Assembly (NCBI RefSeq): GCF_013315695.1
Contig: NZ_CP054353.1
Source: Escherichia coli
Lineage (GTDB): Bacteria; Pseudomonadota; Gammaproteobacteria; Enterobacterales; Enterobacteriaceae
Length of the DNA: 64,000 bases
Reading direction: 5' to 3' (one strand)
Made by a program: the position numbers and the translations under genes. Under the pieces are notes generated by a model, which was not told the origin of the DNA, searched no databases, and worked only from the letters and a program-made list of their open reading frames with translations. Positions 2,286 to 46,677 of this stretch are shown one piece after another; the stretch's first letter is position 1; the number at the start of each line of letters is the position of its first letter.

Positions 2286-3446
2286 TCAGGTTGGATCAAC
2301 AGGCACTACGTTCTCACTTGGGTAACAGCCCAATACCTTCATCGAACGGGTGATGTCCCCTAACTCTTTCAATGCTTTTTGCATTTCCGCTGATTCAAGA
2401 TTGGCCTGAATATCCAGATAAAACATCTCTTCCCATGGATTACCGTGAATCGGGCGTGACTCCAGACGGGTCATAATCAGATTGTGGTTGCGCAGTACCA
2501 GCAACGCTTCAACCAGCGCACCAGCTTGTTGCCCGGTCGCCATTAACAACGTCGTTTTCGCTGGAACCTGGTCAGACACGTTAATGGCTTTACGTGCCAA
2601 CACCACAAATCGGGTGAAGTTTTGTCGCTGATTCGCTTCAATACGCTCCAGTACCTGCAAACCGTACAAAGTGCCGCCAGCTTCGCTTCCCAACGCAGCA
2701 ACATGCGGTGATTTTGCCTGTGCAACCTTTTCCATTGCCGCAGACGTACTTTCGGTATATTCAATCTTCCAGTGCGGATAACGATTAAGGAATTTGCTGC
2801 ATTGCTGGAATGGCTGCGGATGGCTGTAGACCGTATTGATGGTGGATAAATCAGTAGTGCCGGAGACCAACAAACAATGGTCGATAGTTAACGTCATCTC
2901 GCCAACAATCGACAAACTGGTATGTTGCAGCAGATCGTAAACGTCGTTTATGGCACCGGAGCTGGTATTTTCAATCGGTACGACGGCATAGTCGGCCTGG
3001 CCGGTTTCCACCTGATTAAAAATATCGGCAAATTTGGCGCAGCCACTTTCAATGAATTGCTCAAAGTGACGCGCAGCGTACTGACGAGCGGCAAGATGTG
3101 AATAGGAGCCTTTGGGGCCGAGAAAAGCGATGCGTGCTGAGTGCGGATTAATTTTATTGAGATGTTGCTGGAGCAGTGCCTGCTGAGTTAATACGGAATC
3201 TTCAATGATGAGCTGGAACAGGCGAGTAATGTAATGGGCGTCCAGATGGTGCGCTTTACCGAGCGTAATTAATCTTTCCAGCAAATCGCGTTCGCGATCA
3301 ATATTACGTACCGGGCGATGCGAGAGCAGTTTGGCTTTTCCCACCTCGACGGCCAGTTCGCGTCGCTCTGCCAGTAATGCTAATAATTTTTCATCCAGCG
3401 CGCTGATTTTCTCTCGCAGCGCCAGTAACGGGTTTTCCGATGTCAT
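2286..3446 (-). CDS. pheA: bifunctional chorismate mutase / prephenate dehydratase
   Basis: 386-aa ORF recognised as PheA; preceded on the same strand by the pheL leader peptide and attenuator. Confidence 0.93.
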
Positions 3447-3466
3447 AGTGTTGCCTTTTTGTTATC

Positions 3467-3496
3467 AATAAAAAAGGCCCCCCGATTTGGGAGGCC
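3467..3496 (-). terminator. pheA attenuator terminator
   Basis: On the minus strand GGCCTCCCAAATCGGGGGGCC followed by TTTTTTATT, lying between pheL and pheA. Confidence 0.8.
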
Positions 3497-3544
3497 TTAT
3501 TGTTCGTCTTCGCATTCTGTTTCACACGACGAAACGCCTCCCAT

Positions 3545-3592
3545 TCAGGGGAAGGTAAAAAAGAATGCGAAGAAAAACGGTGTGTGTTTCAT
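3545..3592 (-). CDS. pheL: phe operon leader peptide ([15 protein letters not shown])
   Basis: Reverse complement reads ATG AAA CAC ATA CCG TTT TTC TTC GCA TTC TTT TTT ACC TTC CCC TGA, a 15-codon Phe-rich leader; too short for the ORF track. Confidence 0.9.
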   Translation of the reverse strand: [15 protein letters not shown]

Positions 3593-3646
3593 GTTTGTTT
3601 CCTTAAGTGACTTTAGTACAGTACCCGTACTGTTTTCACGCTGTCA

Positions 3647-3673
3647 ACAAAAAACGCGCCCGAAGGCGCGTTG
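3647..3673 (-). terminator. rho-independent terminator downstream of raiA
   Basis: Minus strand AACGCGCCTTCGGGCGCGTT followed by TTTTTTG, just past the raiA stop. Confidence 0.7.
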
Positions 3674-3695
3674 GCGATACACTCAATATAAAGGA

Positions 3696-4091
<396 letters not shown>

Positions 4092-4284
4092 TCAAAATGT
4101 GTGATGGAAATCTCATAATTTTGTCACTTTTTGTCAACGAATCTTTTTTGTGAGAAATCGCAGGAAGAGGTGTTTTTTACTTGAGGAATATCTCAAAGCG
4201 AGCCATATTTGATGAGATCGATAGTGACTAAATCGCTTCAGTTTCACAACTAACAGAATAAAAAAACGGCAGCTCAAGGGCTGT

Positions 4285-5709
4285 AATGCCAGTCAGTTAA
4301 GCAACTGACTGGCTCTTTTTCGGGGCTGTGGGGTATTTCCAGGGCCTCTCCTTTACCACTCTCGGGAAGGCCCTTTCCCTTCTTGTCGGTAATTTCACAA
4401 GTTGTCCCATACTTGCAAGATCGCGCATCAGCTCCGGTATACGTCCCGGTGAAGCGCCCTGCAATGTCATCAGCATTCTCATCACCATTCCGCATGATTC
4501 TGAGAAACTCAGTTGATTCGGCCAGTAACCTTTCAGATGTTCCGCCATTTTAATCATCTGATATCTCACCAGATTATAAGCCAGTAAGACACCCCACAGC
4601 TCTTGCTCCACAAGCTCCGGTTTTTTACTTCTCAGCGTCAGCCTGCTCAGTTGCATCGTCTGTTTTATCTCCCTGTATCCCAGTTCGATTTCCCAGCGAT
4701 GACTGTACAGATCCGCCATTTCTCCTCCGGGGAAGCGCATGGCGTCCGTCATCGACGTCAGCAGATGGCAGACTTTTCCTTTGCGCGTCACGGTCAGCAG
4801 GCGGGCTGTCACTTCATTTCCCAGTCCCGGCCACTTTTTTCGTGCCTGCGGGCTGGTTTTCAGCTTCACCAGATGATCGCCTTTACCCAGTTTTCTGATC
4901 TCTTCATATTGCGCTCCCTTTCTGAGAGGTATCATCCAGTGGCGGTGTTCTCCCGCCAGGCTCCAGGCATTTAACAGTCCCAGTGAGTAATAACCTTTAT
5001 CCATTAACGTCAGAGTGTTATCGCCGGTTTGTTCTATAAGTTGCTCAGCAAGCTCATTTTCGCTGTTCTTCATCGTGCCGAAGGCTGCAGCCGTCAGCAG
5101 ATGGCTGGTCAGTTCCATCTGGCAGACCATTTTGACCTGCGGGTAGAGCGCCGGGTTCCCGGCATGTGTCTGGCGGGGGAAGGCTGCATCGTTCTCTGGT
5201 GTATCCGGTGTGCGCCAGAACACACCATCGATGGCCAGCAGGGTCAGGCCGCACCAGTGCGGATGCGGCGTGGCGTTATGCCAGAGCTGCGCTGTTTTCG
5301 TGAACACGCGGCGGACAGCCTCACTTCCCAGGCGCTGGCGGGCCTGAATAACGGCACTGGGGGCAACGAAGGGGCGATTGCCCGGCAGCATGATGTCCAG
5401 GCGATTCACAATCTGGTGAAGAGGTTCTTTACGCTCAAGCGCCATGCCAACAATACACCAGACCATCATTTCGAGGGGAAGACGGCGCTTGCGTAGCGTT
5501 ACAGTACCTGATTCGGCAAGGCAACGAGAGATGAGTTCGGGGTCGAGGTAATCCCCCAGAGAAGTCAGTGGGTTACGCAGAGAATCGTAACGGGATACCA
5601 GATCAAGAGCCTGTCCAATGTGCATAAAAAAATCCGGAAACAAGTGAGCGTTTCCGGATTCTTACACAGCCACTGGATCGGTCAACTGATCCTTAACTGA
5701 TCGGCATTA
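4285..5709 (-). mobile_element. IS4 insertion sequence, complete (about 1425 bp)
   Basis: Imperfect terminal inverted repeats TAATGCCAGTCAGTTAAG (left, from 4285) and TAATGCCGATCAGTTAAG (right, reverse complement ending 5709), 16 of 18 identical, enclosing a single DDE transposase ORF. Confidence 0.88.
4297..5625 (-). CDS. insG: IS4 family transposase
   Basis: ORF 4297..5643; recognised as the IS4 transposase, with the likely start at the internal [16 protein letters not shown] (track ORF is 6 aa longer). Confidence 0.85.
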
Positions 5710-5750
5710 CAGCCCGAAGGCTGGCATTTTTAAATCAGATAAAGTCAGAC

Positions 5751-23262: not shown

Positions 23263-23622
23263 AATAAAAAAAGGGAGCACTGTATTCACAGTGCTCCCGG
23301 TTCGTTTCGCAGCATTCCAGCTACTTTTGTTGCTCCCTGCTCATCCTTGACAACTTTTCCTCTGGCCTTGCGGCCAATCGTTCATCCTGAACTATTGCTT
23401 CCTGCTCACACCACCCCGATGTGATACTTCATCCTGAAGTGTCCCTGGCCTTCCTGACCCACCGAATCATCCTGACCGGTTCTCATTCTCCATCCTGGAG
23501 GTGTCCTTTAACGCGTCCTGCGTCATCCTCTTCGCTTCATCCAGAAGCCTTTCCCTGAAACACCATCCTGGTGTGTCCTTCAGAAGTGTCATCATCCTGA
23601 TGTTCACTTCGTTGTCTGACTC
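23263..23622 (-). ncRNA. csrB: CsrB small RNA (CsrA-sequestering)
   Basis: Minus strand begins GAGTCAGACAACGAAGTGAACATCAGGATGATG... and ends in GGAGCACTGTGAATACAGTGCTCCC + T-run; many repeated CAGGATG/AGGA motifs (plus strand shows repeated catcctg). Confidence 0.93.
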
Positions 23623-41851: not shown

Positions 41852-42057
41852 ACTTCCTGAGCCGGAACGAAAAGTTTTATCGGAATGCGTGTTCTGGTGA
41901 ACTTTTGGCTTACGGTTGTGATGTTGTGTTGTTGTGTTTGCAATTGGTCTGCGATTCAGACCATGGTAGCAAAGCTACCTTTTTTCACTTCCTGTACATT
42001 TACCCTGTCTGTCCATAGTGATTAATGTAGCACCGCCTAATTGCGGTGCTTTTTTTT
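41852..42057 (+). ncRNA. gcvB: GcvB small RNA (Hfq-dependent)
   Basis: Starts ACTTCCTGAGCCGGAACG a few bp after a TATAGT -10; contains GU-rich block GTTGTGATGTTGTGTTGTTGTGTTTG; ends in GCACCGCCTAATTGCGGTGC + T8 terminator. Confidence 0.92.
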
Positions 42058-46380: not shown

Positions 46381-46457
<77 letters not shown>

Positions 46458-46490
46458 ATTAAAATTTGATGAAGTAAAGCAGTACGGTGA

Positions 46491-46567
<77 letters not shown>

Positions 46568-46600
46568 ATCAAAATTTAATGAAGTAAAGTAGTACGGTGA

Positions 46601-46677
<77 letters not shown>

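Follow-up and report, generated by a model that had tools for sequence, protein, structure and literature searches.

The minus-strand interval that runs from the A of the pheL ATG to the base preceding the pheA ATG (3592 to 3447, with the pheA ATG at 3446) is almost certainly the pheL-pheA ribosome-mediated transcription attenuator of Escherichia coli; positions are those of the window, by which we mean the whole stretch of 64,000 nucleotides that was analysed. The element is already known: it is a classic attenuator, curated in Rfam, annotated in RefSeq, and studied experimentally, and RefSeq annotation in E. coli carries the labels 'Phe leader region' and 'pheL: pheA operon leader peptide PheL', with pheA annotated too. 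An earlier note on this DNA had proposed ribosome-mediated attenuation of pheA and left the strand of the feature unstated; the proposal is borne out by the NF007910 gene downstream, the Rfam match, a modelled switch that depends on the ribosome, and the identity of 270 of 271 bases, from the raiA stop codon into the start of pheA, with the K-12 pheL-pheA locus (b2598/b2599). None of the analyses run yielded evidence that contradicts the attenuation model. The coordinates of the features are collected in Table 1.

Table 1. Positions in the window of the pheL-pheA attenuator, its surroundings, and other RNA features
Feature	Position	Strand	Basis	Remarks
raiA	4037..3696	-		directly upstream of pheL, same strand
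raiA terminator stem	3672..3653	-	terminator scan	strong; 5' of the pheL promoter region
Candidate pheL -35 hexamer	3647..3642	-	read by eye	TTGACA, perfect consensus
Candidate pheL -10	3623..3618	-	read by eye	TACTGT, 18-nt spacer
Shine-Dalgarno-like AAGGA	3604..3600	-	sequence reading	7 nt 5' of the pheL ATG
RF01859 (Phe_leader) match	3593..3468	-	Rfam	full length, model positions 1-125 of 125
pheL ORF	3592..3545	-	translation	ATG at 3592; TGA at 3547..3545 (sequence)
pheL Phe codons	3577..3569, 3565..3557, 3553..3551	-	translation	
UUC_CCC_UGA 'shifty stop' ending of pheL	3553..3545	-	sequence	TTC CCC TGA
Protector/pause hairpin 1:2	3578..3502	-	MFE structure	5' strand 3578..3549, 3' strand 3525..3502; fits Rfam consensus structure
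Inner hairpin of 1:2	3554..3549 with 3542..3537	-		CUUCCC with GGGAGG
Antiterminator 2:3	3543..3488	-		8-bp core, 3543..3536 with 3495..3488
Terminator 3:4 (attenuator)	3498..3474	-	terminator scan	stem 3498..3489 with 3483..3474, loop AAAUC
T run of the terminator	3475..3470	-		6 T
Ala-codon compensatory pair	3566 and 3513	-	116-row alignment	alignment A1 columns 36/89
pheA	3446..2286	-	NCBIfam NF007910	bifunctional chorismate mutase/prephenate dehydratase, 386 aa
CsrB	23263-23622	-	Rfam scan	
GcvB	41852-42057	+	Rfam scan	
tRNA-Met (CAU) trio	46381-46677	+	Rfam scan	

The pheL open reading frame has 15 sense codons, seven of them for Phe, just as the earlier note had read it; the Phe codons are arranged FFF-A-FFF-T-F. 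The ORF is translatable, with a Shine-Dalgarno-like sequence, and stands 5' of a biosynthetic gene, pheA, to whose own pathway the clustered amino acid (7 of 15 residues) belongs. Its peptide is identical to RefSeq WP_001386991.1, 'pheA operon leader peptide PheL', from E. coli strain E2865. The earlier note was also right that the ORF track had missed it: pheL, at 15 aa, is absent from the ORF list because the lister has a floor of 20 aa, and it falls below the 60-aa cut-off of the track as well. The window contains 851 ORFs of 8-40 codons that start with ATG; pheL alone among them has seven or more Phe codons, and it also has the highest fraction of any single amino acid. First-order Markov simulation of the window, repeated 200 times, gave ORFs of 8-20 codons with at most six Phe, a number seen once. 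Neither a screen of short ORFs for amino-acid bias nor the Rfam scan turned up another leader peptide in the window. In K-12, ribosome footprints fall on pheL in vivo, with heavy density at the UGA (PMC5373646).

The leader scores 132.2 bits (E = 1.5e-23) against the Rfam family RF01859, whose gathering score is 55, and NCBIfam NF007910 matches the downstream ORF over its full length with 823 bits against a cut-off of 577. RaiA, TyrA, and AroF are the neighbours of pheA; aroF and tyrA of E. coli are controlled by the TyrR repressor. When complete E. coli genomes were queried with 341 nt across the leader, 5425 of 5426 gave a match with a query coverage of 80% or more; identity is at least 99% in 5126 of these genomes and, among the matches listed, 100% in several.

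No difference from K-12 MG1655 touches any helix, the Phe codons, the UUC_CCC_UGA ending, the terminator, or the distance to pheA. The sole base difference is at 3582 (-), in codon 4, which is ACA (Thr) here and in E2865 and ATA (Ile) in K-12; the change lies in the freely variable N terminus of the peptide and 5' of every helix. The genomic context, unlike the element itself, does differ from that of K-12, because of an apparent IS4-associated inversion (see below).

With TTC CCC TGA at the end of pheL, the leader falls in the UUC_CCC_UGA group of enterobacterial pheL genes (Gurvich et al. 2011; PMC3082878, Fig. 2A), with which it shares length, 10-residue core, ending, and helix layout; there is no substantive difference, residues 2-5 being freely variable across the group. 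The trpL, hisL, leuL, thrL, and ilvL leaders of E. coli have other regulatory codons and unrelated sequences; their logic is shared, with a short ORF rich in the cognate codon, a 1:2 pause hairpin, and a choice of 2:3 versus 3:4 (PMC1183508, PMC9291695). Beside these other leaders, phe stands out for the unusual length and stability of its 1:2 hairpin (-32.7 kcal/mol alone), which has been classed as 'hyperstable' (PMC9291695).

The 139-nt leader has a minimum free energy of -51.7 kcal/mol, versus -29.5 +/- 3.8 kcal/mol for dinucleotide shuffles (z = -5.8, with 0 of 200 as good). In the minimum free energy structure the 1:2 protector sequesters segment 2, and its 5' strand lies in the regulatory codons, spanning the Phe codons (codons 6-14). 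The antiterminator 2:3 is formed by a core of UGGGAGGC with GCCUCCCA (-14.6 kcal/mol) plus inner pairs, which bring the whole structure to -22.8 kcal/mol. Between the leader ORF and pheA lies an intrinsic terminator, the attenuator 3:4, whose 5' arm is shared with the antiterminator: it is a 10-bp GC-rich hairpin of -19.0 kcal/mol (AAGGCCTCCC-AAATC-GGGGGGCCTT in the DNA, AAGGCCUCCC-AAAUC-GGGGGGCCUU in the RNA) with a T run whose first two bases are the last two of the hairpin, and it ends 24 nt 5' of pheA. This is the terminator hairpin that the earlier note had placed after the leader.

The antiterminator overlaps the protector at 3542..3537 and the 5' arm of the terminator at 3495..3489, and since these nucleotides are shared, the helices are mutually exclusive. 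Folding of the leader had been suggested as the check on attenuation, with the absence of mutually exclusive hairpins to count against it; such hairpins are present and switch with the modelled position of the ribosome. The expectation of alternative antiterminator and terminator helices stood, and that of two alternatives did not: there are three, the protector/pause hairpin 1:2 being the other.

In our model the ribosome keeps every base under its footprint from pairing; the footprint began at -15 and ended at +9, +12, or +15 nt relative to the A-site codon, and the transcript that we folded was truncated after segment 3 and before segment 4, which is only an approximation of co-transcriptional kinetics. 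On this transcript the antiterminator has a predicted probability of 0.00 without a ribosome or with a ribosome at the stop codon; when the A site holds one of the Phe codons 6-12, the value is 0.93-0.96 whichever of the three footprints is used. The fold is set, in silico only, by ribosome position. Predictions made separately for each ortholog show this switch in 107 of 116. Equilibrium folding of the full-length leader with a masked ribosome was rejected as a test, since in attenuation the choice falls before segment 4 has been made. It gives a partial switch only: in the window, the antiterminator is disfavoured with the A site on codons 12-14, and with the ribosome on Phe codons it is favoured in just 22 of 116 sequences, the terminator often winning. 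The switch is therefore to be read kinetically (co-transcriptionally), and its partial form at equilibrium is a limit of the calculation that fits a kinetic decision, not evidence against the attenuation model.

We searched one genome per species with a DNA pattern and obtained 120 loci and 115 distinct leaders, in Citrobacter, Enterobacter, Klebsiella, Salmonella, Serratia, Yersinia, Rahnella, Pantoea, Erwinia, and other genera, and the resulting alignment has 116 rows. These orthologous leaders fit the UUC_CCC_UGA pheL group (PMC3082878), although conservation of the 10-residue core carries no weight because the search pattern required it. Most of the 115 have a pheL of 15 codons, with residues 2-5 varying freely, and a PheA homologue (73-98% identity) lies directly downstream in 113 of the 115. 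The distance from the Phe run to the PheA start has a median of 132 nt in the orthologs and is 131 nt in the window. Two of the 115 leaders are without a PheA homologue directly downstream, and the leader-pheA distance reaches up to 321 nt in some; IS1541 lies between pheL and pheA in Yersinia (PMC3082878), an insertion that may explain leaders without an adjacent PheA or with a long distance.

Across the 116 leaders, 95.6% of cells are paired in the terminated-state structure, versus 43-59% in slid controls, and 90.7% in the antiterminator, versus 39-54%, a control that is biased in favour of the structures, which were taken from the window's own sequence; the 1:2 helix has 94.6-99% of cells paired. 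Covariation gives the terminated state 81 compensatory cells (0 of 500 shuffles as high) and the antiterminator a score that 358 of 500 shuffles equal or better, with the shuffle control inflated by relatedness among the leader sequences. The antiterminator, which is conserved and wobble-compatible in the 116 leaders, lacks a covariation signal because both arms are nearly invariant, as is to be expected where each of segments 2 and 3 has two partners (PMC3082878). A C-to-U change in segment 3 respects both partners, giving G-U in 2:3 and a compensated U-A pair in 3:4. Compensatory changes fall at two terminator pairs, one being A-U or G-C in 56 and 51 sequences, respectively, and the other going from C-G to U-A in 16. 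In 13 orthologs an A-U pair of the 1:2 helix becomes U-A, with the synonymous third base of the pheL Ala codon changing from GCA to GCT and segment 2 from T to A; this is direct evidence of selection for RNA structure inside the leader coding sequence.

In an alignment-free check, every one of the 116 leaders has a hairpin no weaker than -12.4 kcal/mol with 5 or more T after it, and in 114 of 116 the 5' arm of the terminator can pair with segment 2 at an energy of -10 kcal/mol or lower, the median being -17.1, versus -7.8 for shuffled segment 2. A column-based simulation gave five leaders (L077, L089, L099, L102, and L103) a score of zero for all helices, which we reject as an alignment-register artefact from indels near the terminator; their alignment-free terminators are -12.4 to -14.9 kcal/mol, and four of the five have strong 2:3 complementarity.

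The pheL promoter may be the pair of candidate hexamers that we read by eye upstream of the ORF. A consensus promoter scan called no sigma-70-like site 5' of pheL, because the candidate -10 matches the consensus at 3 of 6 positions. Directly upstream, the RaiZ sRNA (b4805; a K-12 annotation, from the raiA 3' end) maps by K-12 alignment to ~3810..3649 (-), and its end is the raiA terminator, which directly abuts the candidate -35 hexamer.

Transcription from this candidate promoter would start ~15-20 nt 5' of pheL. As RNA polymerase makes the leader, the 1:2 hairpin would form and, as the literature has it, the polymerase would pause, with a ribosome then beginning pheL translation. When charged tRNA-Phe is ample, the ribosome would pass the seven Phe codons and reach the UGA; there it would cover segment 2, or 1:2 would re-form after its release, and segment 3 would be free for segment 4, so that the 3:4 hairpin and U run would stop transcription 24-30 nt 5' of pheA. 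When charged tRNA-Phe is scarce, a ribosome stalled on the Phe codons would hold segment 1 and free segment 2 (UGGGAGGC...), which would pair with segment 3 (GCCUCCCA) once that is made, and without a terminator the polymerase would enter pheA.

In K-12, pheA expression goes up when Phe is limiting, by this mechanism (PMC3082878, Introduction and Fig. 1), and basal pheA expression is ~10% of the starved level, a figure for which original studies are cited, and depends on ribosome release at the UGA (PMC3082878). Polymerase pauses in the K-12 leader in vitro; NusA lengthens the pause ~1.9-fold, and the hairpin is called the 'protector' (PMC9291695). The Phe response and the pause presumably hold for the window as well, carried over from this literature on a near-identical K-12 sequence.

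Three other accounts of the element were weighed. The one that survives best places the main event at the end of pheL, where slow termination caused by the nascent peptide, or a +1 frameshift, would set pheA expression in the manner of TnaC; we think it very improbable. UUC_CCC_UGA is known to be +1 frameshift-prone and slowly terminating, with 15% +1 frameshifting measured in E. coli, and release-factor mutants alter basal pheA expression (PMC3082878); ribosome density at the UGA is unusually high (PMC5373646). In the window, the +1 frame of pheL is open for 51 codons, through the terminator and into pheA, with its stop at 3393..3391, 53 nt inside the gene, and the ending TTCCCCTGA is kept in 105 of 116 aligned leaders. 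Against this, tRNA-Pro mutants that alter frameshifting left pheA expression unchanged, and the bases of the ending lie in the 1:2 helix, where pairing alone can explain their conservation (PMC3082878, Discussion); such end-of-pheL events would at most modulate the basal level on top of attenuation at the Phe codons. Gurvich et al. held the frameshift to be incidental and without effect on pheA expression, and allowed that a role for the poor termination may await discovery (PMC3082878). The extent of the +1 frame (3391-3546, minus strand) shows a small discrepancy with the about 80 nt given for E. coli in PMC3082878.

That the hairpin and U run are a mere constitutive terminator, serving for example raiA/RaiZ read-through, with a fortuitous and untranslated Phe-rich ORF beside it, has a negligible probability and is effectively refuted. 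Its one attraction is that raiA lies directly upstream on the same strand, but raiA has its own strong terminator, 5' of the pheL promoter region. Further, the Phe content of the ORF far exceeds what chance would give, most of the 115 orthologs retain a length of 15 codons despite free variation at the N terminus, ribosome footprints cover pheL in vivo (PMC5373646), and segment 2 carries a change that compensates a synonymous one in the Ala codon.

A protein repressor, or a riboswitch or T-box, as the main control of pheA in place of leader translation would be in keeping with the neighbouring aromatic-pathway genes aroF and tyrA, but it has next to no chance of being correct, given that the leader has every part of a ribosome-mediated attenuator, that no riboswitch or T-box family matched (Phe_leader being the only cis-regulatory Rfam hit in the window), and that control of the near-identical K-12 sequence is ascribed to attenuation (PMC3082878).

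The surroundings of the attenuator are altered beyond raiA, where synteny with K-12 is lost. A hybrid IS4 copy at 4284..5709 (4262-5731 with flanks), whose ends read TAATGCC... and whose transposase ORF is at 4297..5643 (-), links the region upstream of raiA to eno-pyrG-mazG-relA-rlmD-barA-gud...csrB, which here take the place of bamD-rluD-clpB. One flank is the raiA-proximal half of the bamD terminator, where K-12 homology ends at 2,736,907, and the other is the eno-proximal half of the ygcG/eno terminator, where it resumes at 2,906,602; the two flanks are in opposite K-12 orientations, and comparison of the window flanks with K-12 gave no direct target duplication at the IS4 ends. Compared with K-12, this arrangement implies what appears to be an inversion of ~170 kb between two IS4 copies in inverted orientation; pheL-pheA lies at the edge of the inverted segment.

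The raiA-IS4 junction by itself occurs in 317 of 5426 complete E. coli genomes, and the IS4-eno junction is also found in other genomes, such as MSB1_4I; both junctions together, raiA-IS4-eno, occur in 1 of 5426, TW10690. The IS4 sites (4262-4283 and 5710-5731) lie inside similar terminator hairpins, CGGCAGCCCTTGAGCTGCCG after bamD and TGCCAGCCCGGAGGCTGGCA at ygcG/eno in K-12, both cut by IS4 just 5' of CAGCCC, which suggests that the IS4 copies may have targeted similar palindromic terminators. The attenuator and raiA are intact, and therefore no effect of the inversion on the mechanism is expected.

The Rfam scan also finds full-length CsrB (383 bits) and GcvB (199 bits) in the window, together with three tandem tRNA-Met (CAU) genes of 110-nt period, presumably akin to the metZWV initiator-tRNA cluster. 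The apparent IS4-associated inversion is the reason that csrB is only 20 kb from pheA; we therefore reject the idea, prompted by this odd spacing, that the window comes from a species other than E. coli.

As a discovery the element has small value; it makes a good positive control, being a functional 15-codon ORF invisible to a 60-aa ORF-track cut-off. The UUC_CCC_UGA ending is the only opening for anything new at the attenuator, and a small one. It is unlikely, though worth stating, that this near-invariant ending is kept beyond the needs of pairing, with slow termination and a dwell at the stop codon over segment 2 tuning basal read-through; such a role for the termination rate is inseparable from structural constraint because the bases of the ending are also in the 1:2 helix. 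If it did hold, translation termination would be a second input to the pheA attenuator.
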